The position numbers and the translations under genes were made by a program. Positions 1,454-51,174 of a stretch of 64,000 bases of DNA are shown here, in pieces. Origin of the DNA: a virus (Duplodnaviria > Caudoviricetes); the IMG/VR virus record IMGVR_UViG_3300016484_000881, positions 157-64,156 of that record, one strand, 5' to 3'. How positions within the stretch are numbered: position 1 is the stretch's first letter; every line of letters starts with the position of its first letter. The notes beneath the pieces were generated by a model that did no database searches, was not told the DNA's origin, and saw only the letters and a program-made list of their open reading frames with translations.

Positions 1454-2431
1454 ATGAAAACGATAGACAGTTTTGTTGGAGCAGCTAAAAGGCTCGATGA
1501 TGTTGATTTGCCCAAGTGGGGCCACACTATCGGAGTCGGTGAAGATGAGCTTCATGCTTTCATGGACGTCGAAGCTGCTGGTTCTGGGTTTGATTCAAAA
1601 AATCGTCTTACTCTACTTCCAGAGCCACATATTTTTTACAGGCTCCTGGAGAATTCTGGGAATAAAAGTCTTCTCAAGAAAGCTGTTTCTCAAGGAATCG
1701 CTTATAAGAAATGGCGAACAAAACCATACCCAAGATCGAATGATGCAAAGTATGAACTTCTAAAGCGCATGATGCTCATCAATGAAGAAATTGCTCTTCA
1801 GTCTTGCTCTTGGGGATTGTTCCAAATCATGGGGTTCAATTTCAAGAAAGCTGGTTTCACATCTGCTGCTGAGATGGTTGCAGTTTTTCTAACTGATGAA
1901 GAAGAACACCTTAAGGCAGTAATCAATTTCTTGAAAGCTTCTAAACTTGATGATGATCTTCGCGCTCACCGCTGGAACATTCTTGAGGACATCTACAATG
2001 GTGGTGGATTCAATGGATTTTATGCAAAGAAGCTTGAGAAGTCTTTCAATAAATGGAAGAAGATACGAGACACTCCATGGTCTTTTGATCAAGCATTGAA
2101 TGAGATTAAGTCAGAAGCCAAAAATGGCCCGCCTGTTGCTTTGCCGCCCATAAGCAACAAAGGTGCCACCCTGCCCCAAAAGGCCGCTACGCCGCCAAAT
2201 GCGGGCAATGGCGGGGCCATTGGCAGCTTGCCTAGCCACACAGCACAAAAAACTAAGTCCGCAACAATTTTTGATCGTCTAGAAGTCGTGGTGATTTGGC
2301 TCATGGCTATTTTCACCAATGCTTGGACTTTCTTAACATCGATTGATTGGAGAATTGCAGTTCCTTCAATCATTCTTGGGTCCATCATTCTAGGACTCTT
2401 GCTTTGGCTTATTTTTAGGAGAAAGACATGA
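1454..2431 (+). CDS. Endolysin, N-acetylmuramidase (DUF3380-like) with Pro/Ala linker and C-terminal hydrophobic segments
   Basis: DVEAAGSGF, FEPH-like PEPHIFY, SCSWGLFQIMGFN motifs. Confidence 0.85.
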   Translation: MKTIDSFVGAAKRLDDVDLPKWGHTIGVGEDELHAFMDVEAAGSGFDSKNRLTLLPEPHIFYRLLENSGNKSLLKKAVSQGIAYKKWRTKPYPRSNDAKYELLKRMMLINEEIALQSCSWGLFQIMGFNFKKAGFTSAAEMVAVFLTDEEEHLKAVINFLKASKLDDDLRAHRWNILEDIYNGGGFNGFYAKKLEKSFNKWKKIRDTPWSFDQALNEIKSEAKNGPPVALPPISNKGATLPQKAATPPNAGNGGAIGSLPSHTAQKTKSATIFDRLEVVVIWLMAIFTNAWTFLTSIDWRIAVPSIILGSIILGLLLWLIFRRKT

Positions 2432-2808
2432 ATATGAAATTGAATTCAAACTTCAAATCAAAGATTAACATCACGCAGATCATCGGTTTGATTGCCATGG
2501 TTCTTGCGATGAAGGGTATTGAACTATCAGCAGAGCAACAAGCTGCTTTGGTCACAGTGATCGGCATGATCATTCCAGCAATCACATTTGTGTGGTCTTG
2601 GTTCTACACTCCCGCAGCAAAGGGCACAATTGGCTTGAGAGCAATTGATCTCACGCAAATTGGTTCTATGGCAACTGTTTTGACATTGTTCACAGACCTG
2701 TTCGGTTCTAGTGCAGCTGATGAAAAAGTTGGCTTCATTGCTGCTCCAGTAATTGGGACTCAGATCATCACACTTATGCTTCGCGTGTTCTTGTCTAAAC
2801 TCAGGTAG
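2428..2808 (+). CDS. Membrane protein (holin-like), lysis cassette
   Basis: Several hydrophobic helices; ATGA overlap with endolysin. Confidence 0.5.
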   Translation: MNMKLNSNFKSKINITQIIGLIAMVLAMKGIELSAEQQAALVTVIGMIIPAITFVWSWFYTPAAKGTIGLRAIDLTQIGSMATVLTLFTDLFGSSAADEKVGFIAAPVIGTQIITLMLRVFLSKLR

Positions 2809-2816
2809 AGTCAGTA

Positions 2817-2872
2817 AAGTCAGAGATATCTTCTCAAACCACTGTAATTGCTTGAGTTTTTATCTCTGACTT
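2817..2872 (+). terminator. Stem-loop after lysis cassette (possible terminator)
   Basis: Perfect 12-bp inverted repeat AAGTCAGAGATA (2817-2828) / TATCTCTGACTT (2861-2872); no clear U-tract. Confidence 0.4.
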
Positions 2873-2963
2873 CACCTGCTTTACTGGCACCACCTGCCAG
2901 CCAGTTACAGGCTACCGCTGCCCAAGGTGGCTTTGAGCTTTGTTTGCCCTTACTTTTATTTTT

Positions 2964-3076
2964 GTAGAGTAAGTAGAGTAAGTAGAGGCAACGGTTCATA
3001 AGCCTTTGTTTTACCTAAAGAGATTCTGACTCTACTTGATTCCACAGAATAATCTCGAGTGAAGCCAAGTAGAGTC
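2964..3076. repeat. GTAGAGT(A/C) motif cluster, tandem and inverted
   Basis: GTAGAGTAA at 2964 and 2973, GTAGAG at 2982, GACTCTACTT 3028-3037, AAGTAGAGTC 3067-3076. Confidence 0.7.
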
Positions 3077-3148
3077 AAACTCTGAATTTCTGAAGTTGCA
3101 TTAGCCATCTCTTTGGGTTAAAAAGTTCCGTCATAGGAGATACTAAAT

Positions 3149-4956: not shown

Positions 4957-4957
4957 A

Positions 4958-5091: not shown

Positions 5092-5667
5092 ATGGCAACT
5101 GAAATTCATGATTATTCAGAGTTTTCTAGAGACACAGACCAATCTAGACACCAGATTGGTGGAAATTTGATTGCTGCATTGACTGATCTAGCAGATCAGC
5201 TAGAATCGGCTGAGGAGCTAGTCGCCGATTTAGAGGTCAAGCTTGAAGAAGCAAAAAAGGCTGCTCGCAATTTAAGTGAACACGAAATTCCTAAACTCTT
5301 AGATGGAATGGAAAGTAAAGTCACGCTCCCAGATAAGCGAGTCATTGAAGTTACCGAAAAGATTAGATCTAGTGCCACGGGTGATCGCAAGATATTTGCG
5401 ATTAAGTGGCTTGAGGATCACGGTCATGGGGCTATGGTAAAGAATCAGTTTATTCTTGATTTCCACAAGGGCCAGGAAGAAAAAGTTGCCGCCTTTGAAA
5501 AAATTCTCAGAGATAGTGGAATTCATTTCAACGTCAAGAAAGAGAGATCTATTCATCATTCAACCCTAGAGGCCTTTGTTCGTCAATCTTTAGAGGATGG
5601 TGAAGCAATTCCTCTTGACACATTTGGTGTCTATAGACAGAAATCTACAAGGATTAAACAGAAATGA
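5092..5667 (+). CDS. Conserved phage replication-module protein (coiled-coil N-terminus)
   Basis: RBS GGAAAG before ATG 5092; IHHSTLEAFVRQSLEDG C-terminal motif typical of this module. Confidence 0.7.
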   Translation: MATEIHDYSEFSRDTDQSRHQIGGNLIAALTDLADQLESAEELVADLEVKLEEAKKAARNLSEHEIPKLLDGMESKVTLPDKRVIEVTEKIRSSATGDRKIFAIKWLEDHGHGAMVKNQFILDFHKGQEEKVAAFEKILRDSGIHFNVKKERSIHHSTLEAFVRQSLEDGEAIPLDTFGVYRQKSTRIKQK

Positions 5668-10087: not shown

Positions 10088-10837
10088 ATGTCTGAACCTA
10101 TCAAGTCCGTTCTTTTTAGCGGCAAGACCTACTCAGAAGCTGATCTTGCTAAGATGCAGGAAAAAGATCTTCTTGAACTTCGCAATCTTGTGGCTGTGAA
10201 TCTTGGCGCATCAAAGATCAATGCTTTCAAGGATCTCGAAGCTGCAAAGAAGCTGACCTGGAGTGCTTTGGTCAAATTCGCAGAATCAAGCGATGACGAC
10301 CTTGCCTCGAAAGAAACCAAGGCGGAAGCTAAGGAAAAGAAGGCCAAAGAAAAGAAGGAGAAGGTTCCTCCTGGATATCTGAAGTCTATTGTTCCTAAGC
10401 GGCCGACCAAGAAGCAGTTCTCCAAGATCAAGAAGCTGCGTAACCCGGTTGAGGGCAGTGATCGCTCGTTCGCTTGGCCAGACTACAAAGATGGTATGAC
10501 AGTTCTTGACACCATGCTTGATCCGAAGTTGCATCACGACAAGGTCTATTGGTGGGCAAGCCGAAACCCTCCCTATATTCAGTTGATCGAGCCAACTGAA
10601 GAAGAGTACCAAGCGGCTCTTGCTAAGTTCTATAAGGATCAGGGTATCCAGGATCCAGCCGCAGAACGTAATGCCAAGAAGGCTGCTCGCGCTAAGGAGA
10701 AGGAAGAGAAGAAGGCAAAGCGCGAGGCTGAAAAGGCCGCAAAGAAGGCTGAAAAGGAAAAGGCTTCTGAAGAAGCTAAGGCAAAGCGCGAGGCTGAGGA
10801 AGCCAAGACTGCCAAGCCAGTTCCGTCTGCTGCCTAA
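10088..10837 (+). CDS. Hypothetical protein with Lys/Ala/Glu-rich low-complexity tracts (possible DNA-binding)
   Basis: RBS GGAG; AKKAA/EKAAKK repeats; central YKDGMTV domain. Confidence 0.7.
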   Translation: MSEPIKSVLFSGKTYSEADLAKMQEKDLLELRNLVAVNLGASKINAFKDLEAAKKLTWSALVKFAESSDDDLASKETKAEAKEKKAKEKKEKVPPGYLKSIVPKRPTKKQFSKIKKLRNPVEGSDRSFAWPDYKDGMTVLDTMLDPKLHHDKVYWWASRNPPYIQLIEPTEEEYQAALAKFYKDQGIQDPAAERNAKKAARAKEKEEKKAKREAEKAAKKAEKEKASEEAKAKREAEEAKTAKPVPSAA

Positions 10838-10847
10838 GAGCAGCAAG

Positions 10848-11762
10848 ATGAATGATCTGGTGAAAGCTGGAGAGTTCTTTTCGTTCATGTTAGAACGTGA
10901 ATTGATCCGTCTTCGAAAGAAGGCGGATCAACCGTTTCCATGGACTGAAGATTCAATTCTCCAAACATACAAATTCACGAATGTTCGCCGCTGGCATGAT
11001 CGCACGACGACATTTCTACGCGAGATTTTTTATTCCAAGCACGTGGATGCAGATCGCAAAGAGATTTTGATGAATTGTGCTCTGTTCCGCTATTTTGGGA
11101 CATCAGAGTTTGCTGACGTTATCGGCTGGCAGAAGTTTGATGATTTTAGGTTCCAGGACATTATAAACATTGCTCAGCAACGGCTCGCTGGTGGAAAACG
11201 TGTCTTCACTGGTGCCTACGTCATCACCAATCAAGGTATTAGTGCTCCCAAACAAGAAGTAGTAGTTAATCATTTCCTGAAAGCTCTCCATGAGAAAGCT
11301 CAAGAAATTTGTGAACTTGTTGAAACTGAAGGATCTTGGAAAAGAGTCGTTCAACTAATGTCATCGATCAACGGTTTTGGTGGCACAGGATTCATGGCGA
11401 AGGAAATTCTTCTTGATACTATGATGACGAATTTCTGGCTTGTGCCAGAAACTGAAGAACAGAAGTTCTTTGAAGGATGCAAAGTTTCTTATCCAGTAGA
11501 CTATGACACTTGGACTCCGATTGGTCCAGGAGGACTCCGTGGTGCAGCTCGCATCCTTGGGCATAACGACCCAGAAGGTGTCCTTAAGCAAGACAAGGCA
11601 CTGGAAGTTATCTTGAAATTAGCAGACAAACAAGGGTTGTTCTGGCCATCTATCTATGGTAAGTTATATCCAACTGATTTGCAATTTCAGCTTTGTGAAT
11701 TTGACAAGTACGAAAGAGTTCGTCTTGGACAGGGAAGACCACGTTCTAAATATCAGCGATAG
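10848..11762 (+). CDS. 5-hmdU DNA kinase-like protein (aGPT-Pplase1 / HMUDK helical domain)
   Basis: WTEDSILQTYKFTNVRR and CEFDKYERVRLGQGRPR motifs; GPGGLRG; neighbours dUMP hydroxymethylase; start at ATG 10848. Confidence 0.8.
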   Translation: MNDLVKAGEFFSFMLERELIRLRKKADQPFPWTEDSILQTYKFTNVRRWHDRTTTFLREIFYSKHVDADRKEILMNCALFRYFGTSEFADVIGWQKFDDFRFQDIINIAQQRLAGGKRVFTGAYVITNQGISAPKQEVVVNHFLKALHEKAQEICELVETEGSWKRVVQLMSSINGFGGTGFMAKEILLDTMMTNFWLVPETEEQKFFEGCKVSYPVDYDTWTPIGPGGLRGAARILGHNDPEGVLKQDKALEVILKLADKQGLFWPSIYGKLYPTDLQFQLCEFDKYERVRLGQGRPRSKYQR

Positions 11763-11773: not shown

Positions 11774-13027
11774 ATGAAGATCTGTATTGCACTTCACCAG
11801 TGCATGGACCTTGGTGGAATTATAAATCACACAGAAAATTTGATTGCTGGACTTGCTCATCTTGGTCATGATGTCCATTTACGAGAAATGGTTTGGAAAG
11901 AAAAAGTTCAAGATCAGCGGAAATCAGGTGATGATGAAAGTGTAACTGGAATCTTTTTCAATCAAGGAAATGGTTGGTGTTTTCCAGAGCACATGAGAAT
12001 TCCGTACAAAGGATCTAGACTAAACTCTGCAGTTCAGAAGTTGCGAGCTTATGATCTTGTGATTTGGACTATCCCGGTTCCACCAAAAAACAAAGACAAC
12101 ATTGGGAACACTGATTGGATTCATCTTCATGATCTTCCAAGCACGAAGCAGATTGCTTTTTCTCATGATGGAAACGCTTCTGTGAATTATCCCCATATTC
12201 TAGCAATTTCAGAAAAGCTCGATGGTCTGGCTTGTGTTCATCACTGTGCGCTCAACACTTGTGAATTTGTTCCAGTACCAAGAGCACTGATTCTAAATCC
12301 ACAAAAAGATCCCGATAGACACATTCCGGACTACTCAGACAGAATGAAAGGATGGGTTTCAGCGCAGACGTTTAAGGCTTGGAAGAGAGTTCATGAGCTT
12401 GTCGGTGCGGTTCGCTTTATGCCAAAAATAGGTCCAGATGAACGTCGACTTCTAATAGGCAAAGGCATTGAATATCAGTACATGACCTCTGAAGATAAAT
12501 GCAAGGATGCCTACTATCATGCAGATGGTGCCAAGTTTTGGGAAGCTGCAATCGCTAACGGCATGGAACATGAAGAGTATCAACCGTACGAAATAATTGA
12601 AGAGCTTTTCAGTAGCACGCTGACTGTTGTTGATCCAAGTTGGTCAAAGCGGTACTCATCTATGGGAGGTCATTACAATCGTGTCGTTGTTGAAGCAATG
12701 ATTAATGGTGCTGTTCCAATCGCTAGGAAGATGGGTATGGGAAATGAAATCTTCGAAGCTGGGAGGAACTATGTTGAAATTCCTGAAGGTGCTGATCATC
12801 ATCAGTACGCTGATGGAGTAATGGAAGCGTCTTTTATGTCGAGGAGAAAATGGGAAGAGTTTACAAAGAATAACCTTGAAGTTGTGAAGCAATTTGATAG
12901 AACTAAAATTGCGCAACAGGTGATAGATCTAGCTTATGGCAATATTCCAACTCTAACTGGATTTCCAAGCAAGAGCCTCTCAGAGAAATCCTCAGTCATT
13001 CTTTCTGATCATTATGGAGTTATCTAA
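11774..13027 (+). CDS. GT-B fold glycosyltransferase, probably acting on DNA or a nucleotide
   Basis: N-terminal GGIINHTENL...LGHDV and C-terminal VVVEAMINGAVPI motifs. Confidence 0.75.
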   Translation: MKICIALHQCMDLGGIINHTENLIAGLAHLGHDVHLREMVWKEKVQDQRKSGDDESVTGIFFNQGNGWCFPEHMRIPYKGSRLNSAVQKLRAYDLVIWTIPVPPKNKDNIGNTDWIHLHDLPSTKQIAFSHDGNASVNYPHILAISEKLDGLACVHHCALNTCEFVPVPRALILNPQKDPDRHIPDYSDRMKGWVSAQTFKAWKRVHELVGAVRFMPKIGPDERRLLIGKGIEYQYMTSEDKCKDAYYHADGAKFWEAAIANGMEHEEYQPYEIIEELFSSTLTVVDPSWSKRYSSMGGHYNRVVVEAMINGAVPIARKMGMGNEIFEAGRNYVEIPEGADHHQYADGVMEASFMSRRKWEEFTKNNLEVVKQFDRTKIAQQVIDLAYGNIPTLTGFPSKSLSEKSSVILSDHYGVI

Positions 13028-14106
13028 TGCGAGTCATTGAAGCAAGAAACGTTCATCAAGCTCTACCATTGGGCATGGGATTGTTGGTAGATCATGGAAT
13101 CTTTCGCGATAGCAGGAACGGTCAAGTTCTTGTTGCAGACGGTCCTGTGACCACTGTTTACGACAAGCCCAAGGAGAGGGTGATCTTCTGGCCTGAAAGA
13201 GACGCAAATCCATTCTTTCATTTCATGGAAGGATTGTGGATGCTCGCTGGGCGAAACGATGTGAAATGGATTTCTCAGTTCAGCTCAAACATCAAGAATT
13301 ACAGCGACGACAGGTTGACCTTTCATGGTGCCTACGGTCACAGATGGATCAATCACTTCAATAAGGAAGTGATTCTTGCAACCAAAGAGATTGATGGGGT
13401 TGCTGGTTCGACTTGGGTTCCATTCAATCAACTTGAAGCTATCGCTGAGATTCTGAAAAAGAACAAAGACGATCGTCGCGCTGTCCTTCAAATGTGGAAC
13501 GCCGAAGATGATCTTGGGAAAGAAGGTAAGGACTTCCCCTGTAATACACAGATCTACTTCAGTGTAGATGAAAAGAATCTTCTTAACATGAGCGTCTGTA
13601 ATCGTAGTAACGACATCATCTGGGGAGCGTATGGAGCGAATGCTGTTCACATGTCCATGCTTCAGGAATTTATGGCAGCCTGGATTGGGGTTGAAGTCGG
13701 TCGTTATTGGCAGATCAGCAATAACTATCATGCGTACACTGAAGTTTTTGAAAAGCATAAGAGTTTGATTTCAGATCGTCATATTGGTACGTTCGAAATA
13801 GATCCATATCAGTACGGACGCAAGGGAAGGCAAGCCGTCTCGCCGTTCCCAATGGTGAACAAGCCAGTTGATGTTTGGATGAGTGATCTAACTCTGTTCA
13901 TGGAACAAGGACCAGTGACTGGATTCAATGACGTATTCTTTCGTCGAGTAGTCAATCCAATCTGGAATTCGTGGTTTGCATATAAGAACAAAGAAAGCGG
14001 TAGTTATATTGAACAGGCTCTTGCTCATCTTGAAGGATGTGTGGCGACTGATTGGCAACTCGCTTGCAAAGAATGGCTTGAAAGAAGGAAGGATAAAAAT
14101 TCATGA
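13027..14106 (+). CDS. Thymidylate synthase-family dUMP hydroxymethylase
   Basis: DFPCN catalytic Cys; RSNDIIWGAYGAN with Asn (dU-specific position); RDANPFFH motif. Confidence 0.85.
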   Translation: MRVIEARNVHQALPLGMGLLVDHGIFRDSRNGQVLVADGPVTTVYDKPKERVIFWPERDANPFFHFMEGLWMLAGRNDVKWISQFSSNIKNYSDDRLTFHGAYGHRWINHFNKEVILATKEIDGVAGSTWVPFNQLEAIAEILKKNKDDRRAVLQMWNAEDDLGKEGKDFPCNTQIYFSVDEKNLLNMSVCNRSNDIIWGAYGANAVHMSMLQEFMAAWIGVEVGRYWQISNNYHAYTEVFEKHKSLISDRHIGTFEIDPYQYGRKGRQAVSPFPMVNKPVDVWMSDLTLFMEQGPVTGFNDVFFRRVVNPIWNSWFAYKNKESGSYIEQALAHLEGCVATDWQLACKEWLERRKDKNS

Positions 14107-14511: not shown

Positions 14512-14599
14512 GGACGGGTGCTCGAGAGGTTAAAGAGGACAGACTGTAAATCTGTTGCACTTCGGTGCTACGAAGGTTCAAATCCTTCCCCGTCCACCA
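14512..14599 (+). tRNA. tRNA-Tyr(GUA)
   Basis: Acceptor GGACGGG/CCCGTCC + A + CCA; anticodon arm ACAGA-CTGTAAA-TCTGT; long variable arm GCACTTCGGTGC; T-arm GAAGG-TTCAAAT-CCTTC. Confidence 0.95.
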
Positions 14600-14611: not shown

Positions 14612-15163
14612 ATGAGTCATAACAGAGGTTGCTTTTTCTGTGGTCGCGATATATGGGAATATGATGGTTGTGATCATGGAGAGGACTGTGTCAAAAAGGA
14701 TTTTAGTAAAATGTTAGAGAAACCAATCAATACAGAATTTGTGAATGATCGTCAAGTTGGAGGAAACCACTACAAGACCTCTTATGAACATTGGGATTGG
14801 GTGATCGACAACAACATGGGATATCTTGAGGGTTGTGCAACGAAATACGTTTCTCGTTGGAGGAAGAAGAATGGTGTGCAAGATCTAGAAAAAGCTGCTC
14901 ACTACATTCAAAAAATAATTGAATCTTTTGAGAAAGGAAAATATCCCTCTGCTGATTCTCGAATCCGTGATCAGAATATTAAGGATAACGCTCTGAGATC
15001 AAATAAGTTTGACTTAGCAAATGAGCTGCAATACGAGGAAGGTCTTATTTGTTGGACACTTTCTAGTTGGCGAGAAATTGAATCCCTGCTGATTGCTCAG
15101 AAAATGGTGAATGCTTTGTTACAGACCGCAAGGGACGCCGCTGGTTTGCAAAGTAAGGGCTAG
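14612..15163 (+). CDS. DUF3310 (SaV-like, putative nucleotide kinase) protein
   Basis: QVGGNHY, YLEGCATKYVSRWRKKNGVQDLEKAAHY; RBS AAGGAG; track start 14555 falls inside the tRNA. Confidence 0.75.
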   Translation: MSHNRGCFFCGRDIWEYDGCDHGEDCVKKDFSKMLEKPINTEFVNDRQVGGNHYKTSYEHWDWVIDNNMGYLEGCATKYVSRWRKKNGVQDLEKAAHYIQKIIESFEKGKYPSADSRIRDQNIKDNALRSNKFDLANELQYEEGLICWTLSSWREIESLLIAQKMVNALLQTARDAAGLQSKG

Positions 15164-15302
15164 GCACCTATGCCCGGTGTGTGCTGGTTTTGCGCTTGTG
15201 GCGTGGCCGTAGGGCTTTGCAGCCCTGCCCTAGCCTAGTTGGTTAGTGGCAGCCACGCCGTAGCGCTCATTTTAATGGTTCTGTAAAAAGGAATAAAGTA
15301 GA

Positions 15303-31578: not shown

Positions 31579-31580
31579 TC

Positions 31581-32386: not shown

Positions 32387-32634
32387 TGGCCGCTATCACA
32401 TATCACGACGCCACGCGCGTTTTCCGGGTGATGGGCCATGTTGTTGGCTGGACATGCGAGCCGGACGGCGGGTGGGCGTTTCAACTGTTCGGGCTTGGCG
32501 TTTGGCGGATGAGCCGTGACGAACCTGTCGGCTGGACGATTGGTCCGTTTGTGACCCGAAACAATGGTCTCACCGCCACGTGTTCAATCTCATTCATCCC
32601 CGCTTGGCACAATCTTTTGAAAGCAAAACTATGA
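32383..32634 (+). CDS. Hypothetical protein
   Basis: Overlap-coupled ORF. Confidence 0.55.
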   Translation: MMAAITYHDATRVFRVMGHVVGWTCEPDGGWAFQLFGLGVWRMSRDEPVGWTIGPFVTRNNGLTATCSISFIPAWHNLLKAKL

Positions 32635-32837
32635 CGAATATCCCGATATGGAAAATTGCAGGCCTCAACATTCGCACCCGCGAGCGGCGCGGATACGTCA
32701 AGGAAGTTCAGGGCTACACATCGTGGACTGAATACCAAGTGATCAAGGGGCGCACCATATTGCAGCGCTTTGACACCATGGAAGCGGCTGAACGGTTTGC
32801 GACCGAGCGCGTCGGCGGCGTGTGGAGGAAACCATGA
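32631..32837 (+). CDS. Hypothetical protein
   Basis: ATGA overlap at 32631. Confidence 0.55.
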   Translation: MTNIPIWKIAGLNIRTRERRGYVKEVQGYTSWTEYQVIKGRTILQRFDTMEAAERFATERVGGVWRKP

Positions 32838-33013
32838 CACCCACCGACAAACTCGAACTGGCAACCGTTCTGGAAAACATCCGCACGTCATTCCTGCGCA
32901 TGACAGACCATGAACAGCGCATTGAACAGATCGCCCGCTCTCTCACAACCCCTCCTGTCATTGAAGGTGGACCATGGGACGGCAGGGCAGAACTCAGGGA
33001 GATAGCGAAATGA
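32834..33013 (+). CDS. Hypothetical protein
   Basis: RBS GGAGG, ATGA overlap. Confidence 0.6.
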   Translation: MTPTDKLELATVLENIRTSFLRMTDHEQRIEQIARSLTTPPVIEGGPWDGRAELREIAK

Positions 33014-33249
33014 GCGACAAGATTAAAGTCAACATTTATTCGGCGGGGCCACTTTTTATCTCTGCATCCCCAGATGAGTTTGGCCGAGTTTTTTCTGCGA
33101 TGTCGTCTGTCGATCAGGTGAACGTTCTCCGATCAATGATCAAACACATGGAACCTCACAAAACGCAGTGGGACTATATTTCAATTGAACTGGACCGCCC
33201 TGAAAACGCTGATGTGTTGCACGCTTTTCGGCAAATGGTGCAATCATGA
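33010..33249 (+). CDS. Hypothetical protein
   Basis: ATGA overlap. Confidence 0.6.
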   Translation: MSDKIKVNIYSAGPLFISASPDEFGRVFSAMSSVDQVNVLRSMIKHMEPHKTQWDYISIELDRPENADVLHAFRQMVQS

Positions 33250-33464
33250 TCACGCGGGAACAAGCGATCAAAGCTCAGCTTGAATTGGACGAAGCCAGCA
33301 AAGCAGCACTGCTTTCTTTTTGGCGCACAGAAACGACCGGGAACGAAATGCACGACCCCGCCAACAGATATCACTCAACAAAGCTCTTTGAGAGCCTCTC
33401 CAAGGCTCTCGCCGTCCTTGGCTACACAATGACGCCAGCGCCTACACAAGAGGCGCAGCCATGA
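33246..33464 (+). CDS. Hypothetical protein, paralogue of 31306-31578
   Basis: Shared SFWR and LGYTMTP.PT blocks. Confidence 0.65.
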   Translation: MITREQAIKAQLELDEASKAALLSFWRTETTGNEMHDPANRYHSTKLFESLSKALAVLGYTMTPAPTQEAQP

Positions 33465-33522
33465 GCGCCCGCATGTCAATCCCTGACTGGTGTGACGAAA
33501 TCCCTTTTGACAACGGAGCAAG

Positions 33523-33837
33523 GTGATGAATGAAGTAACGCAGATTGATACCGGGGCAACACTGGTAACACCCGTCGCAAATACTCCCATGGCCATCATT
33601 GAACGGGCCATCGCGTCCGGCGCATCACCAGAAACGCTTTCCAAGCTCATGGACCTGCAAGAGCGCGACAGGGCAAGGGCGGATGCACTGGAAGAAGCGG
33701 CCCTTGTGATTGAGAACGGGCAAGAATGCTACCATTCCGAAGATCAGTCCTACCATATTGAACCGCGAGGTTCCGGAAACCAGATCGGATTGGCGTACGT
33801 CACAGCCATCCGTGCATTGAAGGACGCCAAGCCATGA
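33523..33837 (+). CDS. Hypothetical protein
   Basis: MAIIERAIASGAS...LSKLMDLQER N-terminus resembles ERF-family leader helices. Confidence 0.55.
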   Translation: MMNEVTQIDTGATLVTPVANTPMAIIERAIASGASPETLSKLMDLQERDRARADALEEAALVIENGQECYHSEDQSYHIEPRGSGNQIGLAYVTAIRALKDAKP

Positions 33838-34187
33838 AACAATTATCCTGCATCGAGATTACCTTTCCTGAGCCTGTTGAATTTACACAGCAAGACCAAA
33901 GCGACTTGTTGGCGTTGGTGACGCGCATCACAGATCGCTATTGCGCCACCCATCCGGGGCGCACGATGTGGGCTTTCGGTGTCGGCCAAAAGATGCTCAG
34001 CAACCCATTCCTGACGGGTGATGATCAGCCCTTGGAATTTGACGCCAGAGTTTTTTCAATCGAGTGCAGCGAACGCGCCGACTACCAATGGCCATGCACC
34101 AAATGCGGGAAACCGCAGGGCGATCACAAGGGGCACATCGTCAGTCCGCCAGCAGGTGATTGCGATTTCACGGTGGAAAACGCATGA
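33834..34187 (+). CDS. Hypothetical protein with CxxC motif
   Basis: ATGA overlap; CTKCG. Confidence 0.6.
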   Translation: MKQLSCIEITFPEPVEFTQQDQSDLLALVTRITDRYCATHPGRTMWAFGVGQKMLSNPFLTGDDQPLEFDARVFSIECSERADYQWPCTKCGKPQGDHKGHIVSPPAGDCDFTVENA

Positions 34188-34513
34188 CCGTCACACCAGA
34201 ACAGCGAGACGCCGCGTTTCAGGCGATGTTACAAGAGTGGAACAATCACGTTCGCCGCCTTAACTTTCATTGGTGCCCATCCAATGAAAAGGCTTTCATT
34301 CTTCAAAACGCCCTCGACGCCCTCATTGCCCTTGGCTGGCAGTTAGTGCCAGAGGGAAGCGTGGTGGTGCCGAAGGAGCCGACAGCCCAAGAGTTTGACA
34401 CCATCCGTGAGATCATCAAGTCCACAAAGTGGCTCGGAATGCCGGGTGGACGGACTATGACAGAAGCAACACGCGACGTTTACCGCGCCATGATCGGCGC
34501 AAAGGGAGAGTGA
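34184..34513 (+). CDS. Hypothetical protein
   Basis: GWQLVP...VPKEPT...YRAMIGA motif frequent in phage ORFs. Confidence 0.6.
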   Translation: MTVTPEQRDAAFQAMLQEWNNHVRRLNFHWCPSNEKAFILQNALDALIALGWQLVPEGSVVVPKEPTAQEFDTIREIIKSTKWLGMPGGRTMTEATRDVYRAMIGAKGE

Positions 34514-39399: not shown

Positions 39400-39721
39400 C
39401 AAAGCATATCTTGGGCTCAAGTCTCAAGGATTCAAGCAATCCAGGAGACGAGTTAGCTCCCAAATTAGGACGCTGTGCTCCTACAGAGGTGGCGAAGGAC
39501 GGAAATGTGCCGTCGGCTGGCTCATACCAGATTCTATTTACAAGCCATCTTTCGAGCTTATGAGCCTATCTAAGCTGATGAGAAAACTCGGCGTTTCTGA
39601 TAGTCTGGATTCTTTTGTGTACTCATTGAGGTTGGCTCACGATCAAAGCCACTTTCCTGAAGATATGAGTGAGGAACTTGTGGCTATAGCAAAGAAACAC
39701 AATTTGAAGATTCCTCAGTAA
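39377..39721 (+). CDS. Hypothetical protein, tandem paralogue 2
   Basis: Same blocks as previous gene. Confidence 0.75.
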   Translation: MNKQQIFDKAYLGLKSQGFKQSRRRVSSQIRTLCSYRGGEGRKCAVGWLIPDSIYKPSFELMSLSKLMRKLGVSDSLDSFVYSLRLAHDQSHFPEDMSEELVAIAKKHNLKIPQ

Positions 39722-40305
39722 ATATTCTTTTCAAGGAGAAGACGGAACAGGGCGTGATCTTCATCGCGCCCTTGATCTTTTAAAACTGCCAATTCCTCGA
39801 GGAAGTCCTTATGAGTTTCGCATGGACTTCCCATTTCCTTGGCGACCCTTGGAACCCAGAGAAGCATTAGATGCTCGAGTCCATAGACGATCTCCAGTGG
39901 GTGTGCCCATCTCCAGCAATAGTAACTGTTTGGATCCGTCTTTGTTGGATTCACCTGCTTATGAGGGCTGTAAGGCAAGATCATTCTGAGTATCCTGCCA
40001 ACACGTGGAGAGAGTACTGAGGGAAAATCCTCAAACAGATGTTCAACGAGAACCTTCTTAGAAATGAAGCCTGAACTTGGAGATCTCTTAGCTTCCTTGT
40101 TGAACCATTGGTAGAGTCTCACTTCTGCGATAATGTTCTTTGGATCAAAGACAGCGTGCATCCCTCTCTTTTCACGCGGATCACCTAAAATGAATATTGG
40201 TCCTTCATAATATCCACCAACTTTGTTTTTCACAGGGTTGTACTGATCACGGTAATGCAGCCTCAGGTCTCCGACGGTTTTCGGTGTTTTGTGGGTGATT
40301 TGCAT
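39715..40305 (-). CDS. Hypothetical protein; the only convincing minus-strand gene
   Basis: 196-aa ORF with RBS AAGGAA, no competing + strand ORF, converges on + strand early genes. Confidence 0.7.
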   Translation of the reverse strand: MQITHKTPKTVGDLRLHYRDQYNPVKNKVGGYYEGPIFILGDPREKRGMHAVFDPKNIIAEVRLYQWFNKEAKRSPSSGFISKKVLVEHLFEDFPSVLSPRVGRILRMILPYSPHKQVNPTKTDPNSYYCWRWAHPLEIVYGLEHLMLLWVPRVAKEMGSPCETHKDFLEELAVLKDQGRDEDHALFRLLLEKNIY

Positions 40306-40525
40306 GTTTTGAGGTTCCTTATGGAAGTAAGTAGAGTCAGATGGTCTGTTGTTAATAGAGTAATATCTAAATAAGTCCTTGTAAAGGCTAAGTTTTCTCG
40401 GATAAATATCAGGATAGCAGGATATTGGGTTGTGACTTTGGCAGCCACAAACCGGGGGCTAGGGGTAAGGTGGTGGTGGGTAGCCCGGTGCGGTGCAAGC
40501 TGTGGCTGGTAGTAGTGTCTTTATT

Positions 40526-40551: not shown

Positions 40552-40709
40552 GAAATAAGACCTTGTTTTATATGAGTTTTTTCATATTAGTTTGGAAGAT
40601 TTGTGACTCTACTAAAATCGCCCTTGTTTTTCTGATTCTCTTGGGATAGTTTGTGATATTGGGAAATCTATCTCTGTTTCTCTCACGCGTGCGCAGGAAT
40701 CTATCACAA

Positions 40710-41354
40710 ATGGCCGATACAAAAGACCTCAAGGAATACGGATCTAAGCGGGGCGTTTTCCGGGCTGTCCCTGTCCAAATGTTCGACGGGACCTGGAGAA
40801 CGCAGATCATCACCGGTCATAAGTTCACTGACCGAGAGAAGGAGATATTCCTAAATGAATATTCCAAGCATGGGAGAAAGGGAGCTGCGGCTCGTATCGC
40901 TGGGGTATCAACAAAGACAATCTCTGATCATGTTAGCAAAGATCCTCATTTCGCCATGGCCTGTCTAGAAGCGGAGAATAACTATCGTGAAAGATTGGTA
41001 GAGCATGTCCAGAATCTCGTGTTCGAGGGAACAGAGAAAATCTCCTATGATCGCACCGGGAATATCGTATCGAGAGAGCAGATTTATCCAATCCCTCTTA
41101 TCCTCGCCGAGATGAAGAAGGTCGACGATGGATACCGAGATAAGAAGGAAGTGACAATGAATGTCAACGGCGGCGTTCTCGTCGCTCCATCAAACATGGA
41201 GTCCATCGAGGATTGGGAGAAGAAGTTCGGTTCCTCTGGGCCAAAGATAGAAGGACAGATTGTGACCGATTCATTGACCGAGTCCGTCTCAGATGAAGAT
41301 GATGAGAATGATGGAGAATCTCCAGCTGAAGAGATAGAAGCTGAGAATGAATGA
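40710..41354 (+). CDS. terS: Terminase small subunit (putative)
   Basis: HTH-like EIFLNEYSKHGRKGAAARIAGVSTKTI, YRDKKEVTMNV, acidic tail; typical position. Confidence 0.7.
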   Translation: MADTKDLKEYGSKRGVFRAVPVQMFDGTWRTQIITGHKFTDREKEIFLNEYSKHGRKGAAARIAGVSTKTISDHVSKDPHFAMACLEAENNYRERLVEHVQNLVFEGTEKISYDRTGNIVSREQIYPIPLILAEMKKVDDGYRDKKEVTMNVNGGVLVAPSNMESIEDWEKKFGSSGPKIEGQIVTDSLTESVSDEDDENDGESPAEEIEAENE

Positions 41355-41482
41355 TATTCTCTCTACTGAGAAAAGACAAGATCGAGCCATCTCTCTTTAA
41401 TGAGAGATTGAAAATCTCCGTATGTTCTGGCCCTTGCTTAAGACAATCGCTCCCTCCTGGGTTAATGACCAGAGGGAGCGAG

Positions 41483-41542
41483 TGACCGAGTGACCGATTG
41501 ATAATCTCTCTGAGACAGATTGACCGATTGATAATCTCTCTG
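41483..41542. repeat. Direct repeat TGACCGATTGATAATCTCTCTG x2 plus TGACCGA copy
   Basis: 22-mer at 41491-41512 and 41521-41542; TGACCGA also at 41483. Confidence 0.9.
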
Positions 41543-41822
41543 TCTTTCCATCTCTCCATCCTTCTCTCCGTCTTTCGTTCTATCCTCTTATCATCTCTCT
41601 TCGGTCCAGTCATCGGTAAGTATTTATACCTAGTGTAGGCATAAATACCTATTGGCATTTCGCGCTCACCTAGCACAAAAATCCACCCTTGGCAAGCCCT
41701 AAGCCATGCGCTCGGCGCAACCCTGCCCCTAACATTATGCAATTGTGCGCATAACACGTTGCTGTATTGTTGGCCTATGGCGCAAGCATGGTGCTAGCGC
41801 TACTAACACAAAGGTAAATACC

Positions 41823-42212
41823 ATGGCTAACAATAACACTGCCCGTAAGCCTGTTGCCGCTGCTGCCCCTGTACAGGCTGCCCCCATTGCTACCGCTGCC
41901 CCTGTACAGGCTGCCCCGGCTGCTGCCCCTACTGTTACCAGTGTAGCAGCGGGTGCGCTGGTACAGCTTGGTACACCATGGGTGGTGCGCCCTGCCACAC
42001 ATCGCGCCTATGCGCAAGCGCAGTTTGCTTGGCTGCAAAAGCACAACCCCAAAGGCTTTACCCTTGCACAGGCAAGGGAAGCCCTTGTGCTTAACAGTGC
42101 AGGTGCACCAACCATTGCCTCGCCTAAGGGCGGTTGGCAAAAGCACAACATGCCAACATGGGCACTTGCGCAAGGCTGGCTGCAACCCTTTGGCACCAAG
42201 GCCAAGGCCTAA
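41823..42212 (+). CDS. Basic Ala/Pro-rich protein (129 aa, no Asp, one Glu) encoded in a TC/GA-free island
   Basis: RBS-like AAGGT, upstream TTGTGC-N16-TATTGT, downstream hairpins; internal 23-bp repeat at 41862 and 41895. Confidence 0.7.
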   Translation: MANNNTARKPVAAAAPVQAAPIATAAPVQAAPAAAPTVTSVAAGALVQLGTPWVVRPATHRAYAQAQFAWLQKHNPKGFTLAQAREALVLNSAGAPTIASPKGGWQKHNMPTWALAQGWLQPFGTKAKA

Positions 42213-42228
42213 CACCGCACAACACTAG

Positions 42229-42299
42229 GCTAGGGCTGCAAAGCCCTAGCTAACACCTGCACTAGGGCAGCCACCCCGCCCCGTCAACGGCTGCCCTAG
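42229..42299. terminator. Two tandem GC-rich hairpins after the D/E-free gene
   Basis: GCTAGGGCT-GCAA-AGCCCTAGC (42229-42250); CTAGGGCAGCC...GGCTGCCCTAG (42262-42299). Confidence 0.55.
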
Positions 42300-42367
42300 C
42301 GTAGGGCGGGGACTAGCCCCCTAGATCGACAGTCCACTCTCATCAAAGCGTTCAATAGGGATCAGCA

Positions 42368-43531: not shown

Positions 43532-43924
43532 TAAAGTATGCTCGTCAGAGATACAATAATGATTTGTGTGATTTCTTCAGTCACGATGGCTTTGAGAATA
43601 CCTCATCCAAGAGTCTATGCGGCGGCTCTTTCTCTGGGCTTTCAGCCTTGGAAAAATGGGCTCCGGATATCGGAAGTATTGGATGCCCTCGGATATCGGT
43701 ACAAGACTTCTTTTTCGAAAAGTCTGGCACGGAAGGCTTATCTTTCTCTGAAAGGACCATGTATCGCGATAGTCCCCTCTCGGATGATCAGGCAGTATCA
43801 TGCTGTTGTCTGGTATAAAGGAAAAGTTCATGATCCTCTGAGAAATAAGAATGAACAGTATCAGACAGAAGAATTTCTGCGCTATCGCATACAGACCTTT
43901 TACGAATTTCAGAAGAATCAATGA
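43528..43924 (+). pseudogene. C39/papain-like peptidase-fold gene split by a +1 frameshift at 43563-43565
   Basis: Removing one T joins MIKYARQRYNND to CVISSVTMAL...HAVVWYKGKVHDP; ATGA overlaps at both ends of the joined ORF. Confidence 0.55.
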
Positions 43925-45417
43925 CCCCAGATTATCCAAAAAATGTAGTCTGGAGACCACAAGCTGGATCTCAAGAGGCTTTTCTTTCTTCAACTCCAAT
44001 CTTCGAAGTTCTGTTTCAAGGAACTCGTGGGGGAGGTAAGACTGATTGTCTTCTGATGTCATTTGGGCAGTACACGGGTAGAGGGTTTGGAGCAGCCTGG
44101 AAAGGAATTCTGTTTCGACAGACCTATAAGCAGCTTTCTGACGTTATTACGAAGACGAAGAAGTGGTTCCCATTGATCTGGCCACAAGCAAAGTTTAACA
44201 ATACTGAACATGTATGGACGTGGCCTGAAGGAGAACAGTTGCTTCTTCGACAGTTTAAGAGAGATGATGACTATTGGAATTATCATGGTCATGAATACCC
44301 TTGGATAGGATGGGAAGAACTCTGCAATTGGGCGACTGACGCTGGTTACAAGCGAATGTTCTCCTGCTGTCGTTCATCTAAACCAGGAATGCCTCGTATG
44401 ATTCGTGCTACAACGAATCCGTATGGACCCGGACACAATTGGGTCAAGATGAGGTTCCTCCCGGATAGAATGAACATGAAGGTCAGAAAAGATCTGATTG
44501 ATGAAGAGGGTCGTCCTGAACCGTCTCGTCTTTCTATTTTCTCTAGACTACAAGAAAATCTGATTCTTTTGAAATCAGACCCGAACTATGTGACGAATCT
44601 TGCAGCCTCCGCGAGAAATAAGGCTGAAAAGAAGGCATGGCTTGAGGGTTCATGGGATATCGTTTCTGGAGGTATGTTCGATGATGTCTTCCAGTCTCAG
44701 TTCAATGTCATCAAGCCGTTTGTAATCCCAGAGAAGTGGCGCATTGATCGGTCGTTCGACTGGGGTTCATCAAAACCTTTCTCAGTAGGATGGTGGGCAG
44801 TCTCTAACGGTGAAGATGTCAAGATAGGTGAGGGTAAGTGGAAATCGACTGTTAGAGGCGATCTATTCAGAATTCAAGAATGGTATGGGTGGAGCGGAAA
44901 ACCCAATGAAGGAACAATGTCTCTAGCCAGTGATATCTCTAAAGGAATCGTCGAAAGAGAACTTAAGTGGGGGTGGCGATCTCAGTCTGATCCAAACTGG
45001 TGCCGAGTTAAGACAGGGGTTGCTGACTCTGCAATATTCTCTGTTGAAAATGGAAACTGCATCGAAACAGATATGAAAGTTCGTGTTCGCCTTGATGATG
45101 GAATAAAGTATCGCGGAGTCCCGTGGATTCCAGCAGATAAGAAAGCCGGATCACGCGTGAATGGTTGGGATCAGGTTCGAAGAATGCTAAAGAATGCCCA
45201 TCCTGATGAGAAGACAGGAATGAGAGAAAAGCCGGGTCTCTTTATATTCGACATCTGTGATAATTGGATTCGAACTGTTCCTGTTCTCCCAAGAGATGAA
45301 AAAGAACCAGATGACGTCAATACTGAAGCTGAAGATCATATCGCTGACGAAACTCGCTATCGAGTTAGGGCTATGGGTCTCACTGTTGGGCAGGGAAAGA
45401 CAACTGGACATTATTGA
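43921..45417 (+). CDS. terL: Terminase large subunit
   Basis: GTRGGGKT Walker A, WEELCNW, ATTNPYGPGHNWVK, FDWGSSKPF, EDHIADETRY. Confidence 0.95.
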   Translation: MTPDYPKNVVWRPQAGSQEAFLSSTPIFEVLFQGTRGGGKTDCLLMSFGQYTGRGFGAAWKGILFRQTYKQLSDVITKTKKWFPLIWPQAKFNNTEHVWTWPEGEQLLLRQFKRDDDYWNYHGHEYPWIGWEELCNWATDAGYKRMFSCCRSSKPGMPRMIRATTNPYGPGHNWVKMRFLPDRMNMKVRKDLIDEEGRPEPSRLSIFSRLQENLILLKSDPNYVTNLAASARNKAEKKAWLEGSWDIVSGGMFDDVFQSQFNVIKPFVIPEKWRIDRSFDWGSSKPFSVGWWAVSNGEDVKIGEGKWKSTVRGDLFRIQEWYGWSGKPNEGTMSLASDISKGIVERELKWGWRSQSDPNWCRVKTGVADSAIFSVENGNCIETDMKVRVRLDDGIKYRGVPWIPADKKAGSRVNGWDQVRRMLKNAHPDEKTGMREKPGLFIFDICDNWIRTVPVLPRDEKEPDDVNTEAEDHIADETRYRVRAMGLTVGQGKTTGHY

Positions 45418-47841: not shown

Positions 47842-47849
47842 AATATTGC

Positions 47850-49119: not shown

Positions 49120-49638
49120 ATGAAGGGTCTTCCTCGTTCAACATCTCGTGGTGAGCCAACTGCTCAGGACGTGACCAAAGCTACAATTGTAGTTCGAAAT
49201 GCTACTGTCGCTGTGACTTGTGTTTCGACCGCTGTGGGTTTTGGCACCTTCGTTATTGGTGATTTTCCACAAGGTAACATTCTTCTTCTGGGTGCAGTTT
49301 CATATCTAACATTCAGCGGTTCAGGTTCTGATGCTAATTTGACCGCCACTTGGAATGGCGACTATTCTATTGGTTCCTCTCCTACAGCAGACGTCACTCT
49401 TTCCGGTGCAGAAGTAGACATCATTCCTTCTACTGCGGTCGGTCCAGCTGTTTCTGAGGTTGCTCCTGAAGCTCGCGGTACGAATGCGACTCAGGTCATT
49501 CTTGATAACACTGACGGCAGTCTTGAAGTCAACGTCAACGTACTCATTGATGCTGCTGACATCACCGATGGAGCGACTGTAAATCTCACAGTGAATGGAT
49601 ACTTGGTTGTTCTGTATTCTGTTCTCGGTGACGATTAA
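49120..49638 (+). CDS. Virion structural protein (head decoration-like)
   Basis: beta-rich composition, follows MCP; ATG 49120 after AAAGGA. Confidence 0.6.
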   Translation: MKGLPRSTSRGEPTAQDVTKATIVVRNATVAVTCVSTAVGFGTFVIGDFPQGNILLLGAVSYLTFSGSGSDANLTATWNGDYSIGSSPTADVTLSGAEVDIIPSTAVGPAVSEVAPEARGTNATQVILDNTDGSLEVNVNVLIDAADITDGATVNLTVNGYLVVLYSVLGDD

Positions 49639-49649
49639 GGAGAATTAGA

Positions 49650-50240
49650 ATGCCAACCCAAGAACAGATTATTGAAGCTCTTAGTCTTTTGGATCCAAAA
49701 GACGACGCGTCCTGGACTGAAGATGGCGCACCGAAGATTGAGGCTGTTTCCGCTATCTTGATGGAGCCGATCACTAGGGCTGAAATCGTGAATGCTGCGC
49801 CAAGCTTCAGCCGAGTTACTCTTGATCTTAAACGAAAGACCATTGAGAGCTCTACTGAAGAAACTGTTCGTCCTTCTTATGATAACTATCCAGCTTTCCT
49901 TGCTTGGCTCAGTAAATCTTCAATTTCTGAAACTGAAGAAGTGATTTCTGAGCTTGAAAATGATCTCAACAGGATTTCTTCTGTGATTGATCTTGCGACT
50001 ACCGAGCGAGATCTCGTTAAGAAGGCTTTGAATCAAGCTCGTTTTCGTGTGAAGACAAGTTTCAAAAATACTTCTGATCAACAAGCTATTCGTGATTATA
50101 TCAATTCGCAGAACGCAGCTCGTGAAAAAGCTGCTGGCGTTGTAACTCGAAATGCTGATCCTCGGATGCCTATCGATCGAGCAATGACAAGAAATCGCAG
50201 CTTTGGAGCTAATCGTCCAAAGTTTCCAGTTAATAAGTAA
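49650..50240 (+). CDS. Hypothetical virion-module protein
   Basis: LDPKDDASWTEDGAPKIEAV N-terminal motif. Confidence 0.65.
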   Translation: MPTQEQIIEALSLLDPKDDASWTEDGAPKIEAVSAILMEPITRAEIVNAAPSFSRVTLDLKRKTIESSTEETVRPSYDNYPAFLAWLSKSSISETEEVISELENDLNRISSVIDLATTERDLVKKALNQARFRVKTSFKNTSDQQAIRDYINSQNAAREKAAGVVTRNADPRMPIDRAMTRNRSFGANRPKFPVNK

Positions 50241-50242
50241 AG

Positions 50243-50262
50243 AGGGGACGAAAGTCCCCTTA
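50243..50262 (+). terminator. GNRA-loop hairpin (possible terminator)
   Basis: AGGGGAC-GAAA-GTCCCCT. Confidence 0.55.
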
Positions 50263-50280
50263 AACTTTAAGGAGCGATAG

Positions 50281-51174
50281 ATGTCTCTGATCATTGAGAC
50301 TGGCTCTGGTGTTCGCGGGGCAAATTCATACGTTAATGTTGCGTATGTCACTTCCTATCTGACGACCAGAAATCGTCATGTGGCTTGGTCTGCTCTTTCT
50401 ACACAAGTGAAAGAAGCTGCCATTGTTGCCGCGACTGATTATCTTGAGAAAAGATTCTCTGATAAATTCAAGGGATCTCCTGCATTTTATTTTGATGCCT
50501 CTTATGCTGAGGCAATACTCTCTTTCTCTGGGCAACCTTCAAATGGAGATCTTCTAACCATCGGGGATTACCAGTACAAATTCGTCAGTTATCTTTCTGG
50601 TTCTTCCCTAGAAGTTCTTATTGGTGGCTCTACAACGAATACTGTTACGGCTTTGGAAGCTGCACTAAATGGGGCAGCAGGGCAGGGGGTTTTATATGGC
50701 CCTACAAGCCCCATAAATAGCGCTGTAGTGGCAAAGCAAGCGGGCATGGCCCTAACCCTTATGGCTACTGCCCCCGGCACAGGCGGCGTTCTAACGCGTC
50801 TGGAGGGTACAGTCACAAATATGTCTATAACGGCTTTTTATGGTGGTCTTGATGGTGGTCCACAATCTCTATCTTGGCCGAGAAACAGAGCCTACGATAA
50901 TGGTATTCTCATTGAAGGAATTCCGGATCGTCTAAAACAGGCTATCTCAGAATACGCAGTTCGAGCATCTTCAGCTGAACTTCTGCCTGATCCAGATGTT
51001 GATTCTTATGCAGGTGCAATCAGTGAGCGTAGAGCGGAAGTTGGTCCAATTCGTGAGCAGATTAAATATTCTGGTTCGACGGGTTTTTCAGTTTTCTCAC
51101 CGTACCCATCAGCAGACAAACTTCTTCGACCTCTTCTAGTTTCTTCAACTGGAGGAAGAGTTTACCGTGGCTGA
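50281..51174 (+). CDS. Head-tail adaptor (DnaT-like SSB fold family) with internal insertion
   Basis: GANSYVNVAY...AATDYLE N-part and QSLSWPR...IPDRLKQAISEYA C-part separated by about 125 aa. Confidence 0.7.
   Translation: MSLIIETGSGVRGANSYVNVAYVTSYLTTRNRHVAWSALSTQVKEAAIVAATDYLEKRFSDKFKGSPAFYFDASYAEAILSFSGQPSNGDLLTIGDYQYKFVSYLSGSSLEVLIGGSTTNTVTALEAALNGAAGQGVLYGPTSPINSAVVAKQAGMALTLMATAPGTGGVLTRLEGTVTNMSITAFYGGLDGGPQSLSWPRNRAYDNGILIEGIPDRLKQAISEYAVRASSAELLPDPDVDSYAGAISERRAEVGPIREQIKYSGSTGFSVFSPYPSADKLLRPLLVSSTGGRVYRG

Follow-up and report, generated by a model that had tools for sequence, protein, structure and literature searches.

Within the 64,000-nt window analyzed here, which is the 64,156-bp genome of the tailed phage IMGVR_UViG_3300016484_000881 (Duplodnaviria; Caudoviricetes) minus 156 nt, eight segments almost completely lack the dinucleotides TC and GA, which are one and the same dinucleotide read on both strands (TC/GA). 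The genome also carries a gene cluster for thymine modification, including a gene for a 5-hydroxymethyldeoxyuridine (5-hmdU) DNA kinase. The purge of TC/GA from these islands is real and specific, it is selected and conserved, and it is tied to a thymine-hypermodifying lineage. Judged from the sequence, it is somewhat probable that the T of TpC is the hypermodified base and that the islands are sequence-encoded windows that stay free of the modification.

A first-pass annotation of the window had counted 0, 1, 0, 1, 1, 0, 4, and 0 TC/GA in the eight segments, and the recount yielded the same numbers for all of them. Its estimate of about 18% TC+GA in the backbone was slightly high, as TC/GA make up 15.6% of the dinucleotide steps genome-wide. 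This corresponds to an observed/expected ratio of 1.27, so that a genome-wide avoidance of the motif was rejected and the avoidance is local only. The longest TC/GA-free runs measure 289, 163, 143, 133, 132, 87, 83, 82, 75, and 62 nt, whereby runs of at least 132 nt are expected about 2e-6 times per genome (geometric approximation, f = 0.156). No other class of comparable frequency gives such long runs, since the longest stretches free of AA/TT, AG/CT, or CA/TG reach 54–68 nt at most. It had also been claimed that other dinucleotides remain in the islands; TG/CA, CT/AG, and TA are indeed all retained there and thus the avoidance is specific to TC/GA. The islands have a GC content of 50–63% compared to 43% for the genome, and across the genomes studied below islands exceed their own genome by 10–19 GC points. 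They recur at intervals, as had been noticed, with a measured spacing of 7–12 kb, plus two close pairs.

Three of the islands lie in frame within or overlap genes, four are intergenic, and one contains a whole small gene. Island 1 (2116–2257; 142 nt, 0 TC/GA) is in frame in the endolysin open reading frame (ORF) 1454–2431 and encodes the Pro/Ala-rich C-terminal linker of the endolysin. Island 8 (50658–50789; 132 nt, 0 TC/GA) is in frame in the head-tail adaptor gene 50281–51174, where it is part of an insertion of about 125 amino acids (residues ~70–195). Island 3 (15136–15266; 131 nt, 0 TC/GA) straddles the 3′ end of the DUF3310 gene and the spacer that separates this gene from that of the DNA polymerase. 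The intergenic islands are island 2 (2874–2966; 93 nt, 1 GA) upstream of the helicase gene at 3149, island 4 (22312–22445; 134 nt, 1 TC) directly after the primase gene, island 5 (30709–30810; 102 nt, 1 TC) between the ATPase-like gene 29430–30659 and the ORF at 30901, and island 6 (40436–40517; 82 nt, 0 TC/GA), which is located in the divergent spacer between the minus-strand gene 39715–40305 and the small terminase subunit gene terS and is followed by an AT-only repeat. The largest one, island 7 (41714–42310, plus strand; 597 nt, 4 TC/GA), reaches left to about 41614 with three interruptions. It is bracketed by terS (40653–41354, plus strand; phrog_4044) and TerL (43921–45417; phrog_979). 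Next to two of the islands a short repeat was observed: AAGTAGAG occurs in 6 copies in the genome compared to 1.8 expected, four of which are clustered right after island 2 (2971–3074), and one copy stands beside island 6 (40329–40336). The repeat might serve as an operator or as part of a promoter specific to the phage.

The islands are kept TC/GA-free by selection at the DNA level. For the coding islands, the peptide was held fixed while synonymous codons were drawn according to this genome's own usage in 5000 resamples. The small gene of island 7 contains 3 TC/GA where 30.0 are expected, the endolysin linker of island 1 contains 0 instead of 14.1, and the adaptor segment of island 8 contains 0 instead of 11.3, whereby in each case 0 of the 5000 resamples were as low. 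As a control served a Lys/Ala/Glu-rich protein tail encoded at 10670–10808, which holds a 139-nt run free of AC/GT. Here, the same procedure gave P = 0.14, meaning that the run is explained by composition, and thus the resampling separates composition effects from selection at the DNA level. GC richness as the cause was rejected, because a GC-rich block at 31.5–34.5 kb still has 9–14% TC+GA. A structured non-coding RNA was rejected as well, as the only Rfam match is a tRNA-Tyr. In comparison to shuffled sequences, folding gave z-values from -1.6 to +0.9 in eight of nine island segments and z = -6.6 in the remaining one (42213–42310). Compared to random backbone windows, the islands show no enrichment of sigma-70-like promoters, and the best sigma-70-like match of all island regions is found in the spacer of island 6, with its -10 element outside the island.

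The IMG/VR database was searched with the major head protein and the kinase, which led to 119 loci and to 15 near-complete relatives (G001–G015; G000 designates the genome of the window). Islands were called at a threshold of E<0.01 per genome. Homologues of the 5-hmdU kinase are present in 14 of the 15 relatives. Among the 15 kinase-bearing near-complete genomes (G000–G014), 11 have islands, including the distant G010 (474 nt) and G012 (138 nt), and none were found in the single complete kinase-less relative, G015, which has a 61%-identical head protein and no homologues of the kinase, the thymidylate synthase, or the polymerase. Per relative there are 1 to 8 islands, up to 31 kb apart; regular spacing as a conserved feature was therefore rejected, since island number and gaps vary from genome to genome. 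A dispersed repeat or mobile element family was rejected by an all-against-all blastn of 69 islands, and the only similarity among the islands of the window is one 24-nt hairpin.

What is conserved are the sites. The interval between terS and TerL has an island in nine genomes, and further homologous sites are the 3′ end of the DUF3310 gene, the adaptor insertion, the tape-measure gene, the position after the primase gene, and the position beside the helicase gene. At the DUF3310 3′ end, islands of 90–143 nt were detected in G001, G004, G008, and G009 as well as in the loci L110, L111, L113, L121, L122, and L133, whereby that of L113 lies in frame within the DUF3310 linker. Islands beside the helicase gene are also present in G008 and G014, and in G001 an island of 77 nt lies at a distance of 58 nt from the primase gene, comparable to island 4. 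In the adaptor gene, a segment of about 45 codons is TC/GA-free in G000, G001, and G009, and in G002 a part of it is; the encoded peptides have diverged among these genomes and the flanking codons are TC/GA-dense. G003 and G005 are missing the adaptor insertion. In one sub-clade, the structural-module island was observed in or beside the tape-measure gene and not in the adaptor gene. Islands at the tape-measure site are located at 23875–24043 in G004, 44948–45058 in G006, 11916–12031 in G007, 41988–42110 in G008, and 5396–5490 in G013. Island lengths cluster at 132–145 nt (18 of the 69 non-redundant islands), and one might speculate that this uniform length of about 140 bp corresponds to the stretch covered by a DNA-wrapping or oligomeric protein. 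Two independent pairs of homologous islands together show 37 substitutions, of which 0 create TC/GA although 33% of the possible ones would. This comparison is biased by ascertainment, since both partners of a pair had been defined as islands beforehand.

Island 7 presents itself as a self-contained unit. It comprises a candidate promoter (TTGTGC at 41743–41748, a 16-nt spacer, and TATTGT at 41765–41770), the ribosome-binding site AAGGT, an ORF (41823–42212, plus strand), and two strong hairpins (42213–42310), which look like terminators. The ORF encodes a protein of 129 amino acids with 0 Asp and 1 Glu, in which an N-terminus rich in Ala, Pro, Thr, and Lys precedes a conserved domain of about 80 amino acids at the C-terminus. 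A profile search revealed at least 142 metagenomic members of this family, none of them named or matched in Pfam, PHROG, or PDB, and the protein of the window gave no significant match in Pfam, PHROG, PDB sequence, Foldseek, or Atlas searches. Two AlphaFold models reached predicted local distance difference test values of 60 and 65 and retrieved weak winged-helix-like Foldseek rows (E >3). From its composition we would guess that the protein has a DNA-binding role. Across 120 family members, Asp and Glu account for 0.5% and 0.4% of the residues, respectively, and 71 of the 120 have neither. The family is almost devoid of the two amino acids because GAN codons contain GA. In those members that do have acidic residues, Glu and Asp tend to stand where the TC/GA-free members have Gln or Asn, and their genes still have 4–6% TC/GA compared to 15–16% in their own contigs.

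Homologues of the island gene are always located between terS and TerL, and those of G003 and G004 lie inside stretches of 692 nt and 676 nt, respectively, with zero TC/GA. In 10 of 13 homologous units, a promoter-like site precedes the ATG by 40–55 nt. The hexamers of these sites are TC/GA-free themselves, with TTGCCA or TTTACA in place of TTGACA. Such a positionally conserved site occurs only before the island gene and is not general to islands. The unit between terS and TerL looks like an autonomous gene, which is probably transcribed by the host RNA polymerase.

Several observations concern the surroundings of this unit and its counterparts. Island 7 is abutted upstream by a polypyrimidine TC tract (41505–41600, plus strand; 95 nt) with 25 TC/GA per 80 nt, and the TC/GA density maximum of the genome is a tie between this tract and the acidic tail of terS. 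The region 41350–41610 downstream of terS holds two 22-bp TGACCGATTGATAATCTCTCT-type repeats and more TGACCGA copies, followed by the TC tract; possibly it is a packaging or regulatory site. The interval between TerL and terS in G001 (L089 plus L086; contig end and start) has no island gene. Its place is taken by a long palindrome and by arrays of short tandem repeats that add up to about 1.1 kb (GGCAGGC-type, CACTGACGCCGACAGA, CCTATTG, and CCCTATTCCTAAT) and are TC/GA-free and TC/GA-rich by turns. In G010, a distant kinase-bearing phage with a non-homologous head protein, a 474-nt TC/GA-free unit is located at 40997–41470. Its parts are a promoter-like TTGCCA-17-TAACAT site, a gene for a different, basic protein of about 108 amino acids without Asp or Glu, and a GC-rich hairpin with an A/T run behind it. 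The unit looks like a version of the island gene that is either independent or has diverged strongly.

The thymine-modification cluster of the window is located between the ribonucleotide reductase and DNA polymerase genes and consists of genes for an HMUDK_hel kinase, a GT-B-like protein, a thymidylate-synthase homologue, a deoxyribosyltransferase-like protein, a tRNA-Tyr, and a DUF3310 protein. That thymine-modification genes are present had already been proposed, and the kinase gene (10848–11762, plus strand) matches PF18723 with E = 6.8e-36, which passes the curated Pfam cut-off. The kinase is the presumed source of the context specificity. The GT-B-like glycosyltransferase candidate (11774–13027, plus strand; weak Pfam matches to PF00534 and PF13439) is a candidate for the decorating enzyme, in whose place other modules are found in relatives. 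The thymidylate-synthase homologue (13027–14106, plus strand; PF00303 with E = 3.5e-21, phrog_5131 with E = 5.9e-123) is the presumed dUMP hydroxymethylase. No amino acid:DNA transferase (aGPT-Pplase) was detected in the interval from the ribonucleotide reductase gene to the DNA polymerase gene; the scan covered some but not all ORFs of the genome. The tRNA-Tyr inside the cluster (14512–14599) has a GTA anticodon. Just 5′ of the kinase gene, at the 3′ end of the ORF 10088–10837, the segment 10670–10848 contains the 139-nt AC/GT-free run and in addition a 176-nt AT-free run. It encodes the Lys/Ala/Glu-rich tail, and the same tail is present in L108, L109, L112, L121, and L122.

The first-pass annotation had further suggested that the backbone is selected for TC/GA. 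When synonymous codons were permuted within genes and TC/GA were counted at codon junctions, the tested genomes of the G000-like kinase clade, including G002, gave ratios of 1.06–1.14 (z 15–40), with 1.10 for the genome of the window. This is an enrichment beyond codon usage and protein sequence, in agreement with the suggestion. The ratio was 0.96–1.03 in the island-less G005, G011, G015, and Pseudomonas phage M6; G007, G010, G012, G013, and G014 were left out of the test. TG/CA is mildly enriched at codon junctions in all genomes tested. In the kinase tree the G000-like genomes form one well-supported clade, and every complete member of it but G002 has islands. G002 belongs to a monophyletic sub-clade together with L105, L107, L108, L109, and L112. 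The members of this sub-clade encode an NAD-dependent epimerase and, in all but L105, a TAGT-like glycosyltransferase; the GT-B-like or radical-SAM modules found in genomes with islands are missing from them. Only relics of 56–64 nt remain in G002, at the DUF3310 and adaptor sites. The pattern suggests that the kinase sets the context and that the attached group decides on the need for windows. Overall, the presence of islands is associated with membership of the kinase clade and with the kind of decorating enzyme.

The genes next to the kinase differ within the clade. In G002 (L091:4891-6655) they code for the NAD-dependent epimerase and the TAGT-like glycosyltransferase, in G009 (L157:11435-13512) for a radical-SAM/SPASM protein and an uncharacterised protein of 327 amino acids, and in G001 (L087:4465-6185) for an FkbM methyltransferase, a radical-SAM protein, and a GT-B-like protein. 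These predicted functions imply several different thymine decorations within one clade.

If the islands are modification-free windows, the following course of events could be assumed. All T would first be incorporated as 5-hmdU, and the 5-hmdU DNA kinase would then, post-replicatively, activate only 5-hmdU that precedes C, whereupon a glycosyltransferase or radical-SAM module would decorate the activated base. The backbone would carry a maximal number of protective marks and the windows, being without the target, would stay unmarked. The near-universal window between terS and TerL would in most genomes hold a gene for a small basic protein, probably transcribed by the host RNA polymerase, and this protein would have given up Asp and Glu since GAN codons contain GA. 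The other windows, often 132–145 bp in length and placed in tolerant linkers or spacers, would presumably serve as unmodified sites for a DNA-protein transaction. We infer TpC as the modified context, the unmodified state of the islands, and their role.

A number of results weigh against this interpretation. No islands of any dinucleotide class were detected in the experimentally characterised M6 and in the first 100 kb of the likewise characterised Acinetobacter phage SH-Ab 15599. Context-specific modification alone does not require islands, and islands are not a general property of HMUDK phages. Of the earlier interpretation, the selected islands, the enriched backbone, and the kinase cluster are supported. 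Furthermore, islands are missing from G002, which has the strongest TC enrichment, as well as from G005 and G011, whose HMUDK is a distant one, and the kinase-less side of the comparison consists of one complete relative (G015). The islands are neither enriched in sigma-70-like promoters nor unusually structured, and a TC-reading factor besides the kinase would explain most of the comparative data just as well.

The alternative that survives best, although we consider it unlikely, is that TC/GA are read by such a non-kinase factor. This could be a host defence or a phage nuclease or deaminase that degrades host DNA and prefers TC; the islands would then be parts of the genome that must survive unprotected, such as the first gene expressed after entry. 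TC-preferring enzymes are exemplified by T4 endonuclease IV and the DddA-type deaminases. With a reader of this kind it would make sense that the purge affects both strands and spans promoter, gene, and terminators, and that the island gene is located in the packaging region and adjoins repeats. However, a target under attack should be avoided genome-wide, yet TC/GA are enriched in the backbone. The occurrence of islands also follows the kinase clade and the decorating-enzyme type, and there was no candidate for a TC-specific nuclease or deaminase among the genes scanned. It could also be that the selection acts on RNA, in that island transcripts avoid UC and GA steps cut by an infection-time RNase. 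That the largest island is a complete transcription unit speaks for this, but we regard RNA-level selection as very improbable, given that TC and GA are both absent, as for a double-stranded DNA target, that spacers which do not look transcribed are purged too, and that short patches in the otherwise TC/GA-rich endolysin, adaptor, and DUF3310 mRNAs could not protect them.

A local mutational process, or inserted foreign or mobile GC-rich DNA, would leave islands without any selection. The islands are GC-richer and have a different dinucleotide signature, and some of them lie in insertions relative to other phages. Against this, apart from the 24-nt hairpin they have no mutual similarity, they are in frame and hold the same positions in genomes that have diverged, and they decay to relics in the G002 sub-clade. 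Moreover, C-to-T deamination at TC would give AT-rich rather than GC-rich islands, and an enrichment of CC/GG is inconsistent across genomes, which makes such an origin highly improbable. That low-complexity Ala/Pro/Gly-rich protein segments and high GC content produce the islands as a side effect is hardly credible, for although three islands encode low-complexity linkers and composition alone does yield the run in the tail at 10670–10808, synonymous resampling rejects it, five of the islands are non-coding, and the GC-rich block is not TC/GA-free.

With respect to the islands as modification-free windows, we would tentatively go further and propose that a widespread uncultured clade hard-wires a TpC modification pattern into its genomes by means of a target-rich backbone and target-free windows at conserved positions. 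Among the latter would be a "bootstrap" gene unit, which remains normal DNA legible to the host and encodes a protein that evolved free of acidic residues, and pads of about 140 bp, set even into protein linkers. The need for the windows would be set by the attached group, and the windows would decay after a swap to a TAGT-like/epimerase module. If this is true, the primary sequence reveals both the modified dinucleotide and those parts of the genome that must stay unmodified, the specificity of a modification could be read from metagenomes purely computationally, and natural unmodified windows would be defined whose function is testable by recoding. The island protein is an extreme case of DNA-level selection overriding protein chemistry, as a conserved family lost Asp and Glu. 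The findings also bear on how host enzymes, for example RNA polymerase, use hypermodified genomes and on how such genomes might evade modification-dependent defences.

As for the genome as a whole, the phage is a siphovirus with nearly all genes on one strand, the gene 39715–40305 next to island 6 being the only one on the minus strand. Recognisable genes include those for the terminase, the portal, the major head protein, tail proteins, and the endolysin. The replication module codes for a helicase, a Dda-like helicase, the ribonucleotide reductase, the DNA polymerase, and the primase, in a gene order similar to that of M6. DNA and protein searches with the island region gave no match among 50,697 phage records. 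None of these records is close to the genome, and the closest cultured relatives are PaMx25, NP1, and PhiJL001, with about 48% identity of the portal protein. The GC skew climbs almost monotonically and gives no origin signal. Terminal repeats of 99–127 nt in related contigs are assembly (k-mer) overlaps and thus uninformative on the physical genome ends. The GC-rich block at 31500–34500 (50–59% GC compared to 41–45%) shows many overlapping ORFs on both strands, and its TC+GA content can be described as normal; it may be acquired DNA.

In the literature, we found no paper that describes context-free islands. Context-dependent thymidine hypermodification, on which the first-pass annotation had relied, has been published, with TG and/or TC as context. 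Restriction-enzyme resistance points to a TG/TC modified context in M6, Salmonella phage ViI, and Delftia phage PhiW-14, and the context specificity was ascribed to the kinase (Flodman et al., 2019; PMC6449724). For SH-Ab 15599 the modified context is TG and to a lesser extent TC, according to a 2026 paper (PMC13458397), and the conversion has been described as sequence-specific (Lee et al., 2018; PMC5889632). The phage of the window resembles M6, ViI, PhiW-14, and SH-Ab 15599 in having a hydroxymethylase candidate and a 5-hmdU kinase, in a gene order that resembles M6. In contrast to the M6-type systems, it has a GT-B-like glycosyltransferase and no amino acid:DNA transferase among the scanned ORFs. 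Whereas those systems modify TG and/or TC, the context here would be TC only, because TG/CA is not avoided in the islands. Unlike this phage, M6 and SH-Ab 15599 have no context-free islands, as stated above for the sequence searched.

The islands are also reminiscent of the avoidance of restriction sites and other short motifs, where a short DNA word is likewise removed by selection at the cost of codon choice. Here, however, the word has only two bases, is over-represented genome-wide, and is purged only in windows of 80–700 bp, and the purge eliminates Asp and Glu from a protein. Leading regions of phage genomes offer a further likeness, namely the pre-early region of T5, which is transferred in the first step, and the early region at the leading end of T7, which carries an anti-restriction gene. 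Like these, the terS–TerL unit would be a small, self-contained, and probably host-transcribed unit near repeats and palindromes, in this case in the packaging region. The likeness has its limits, as the T5 first-step region comprises about 10 kb compared to about 0.6 kb for the unit here and the seven other islands are internal. Finally, the CpG islands of vertebrates are discrete windows that escape a dinucleotide-targeted DNA modification, and they may be named as an analogy only: there the target dinucleotide is kept and the escape is brought about by protein binding, whereas here the escape would be achieved by the absence of the target itself.

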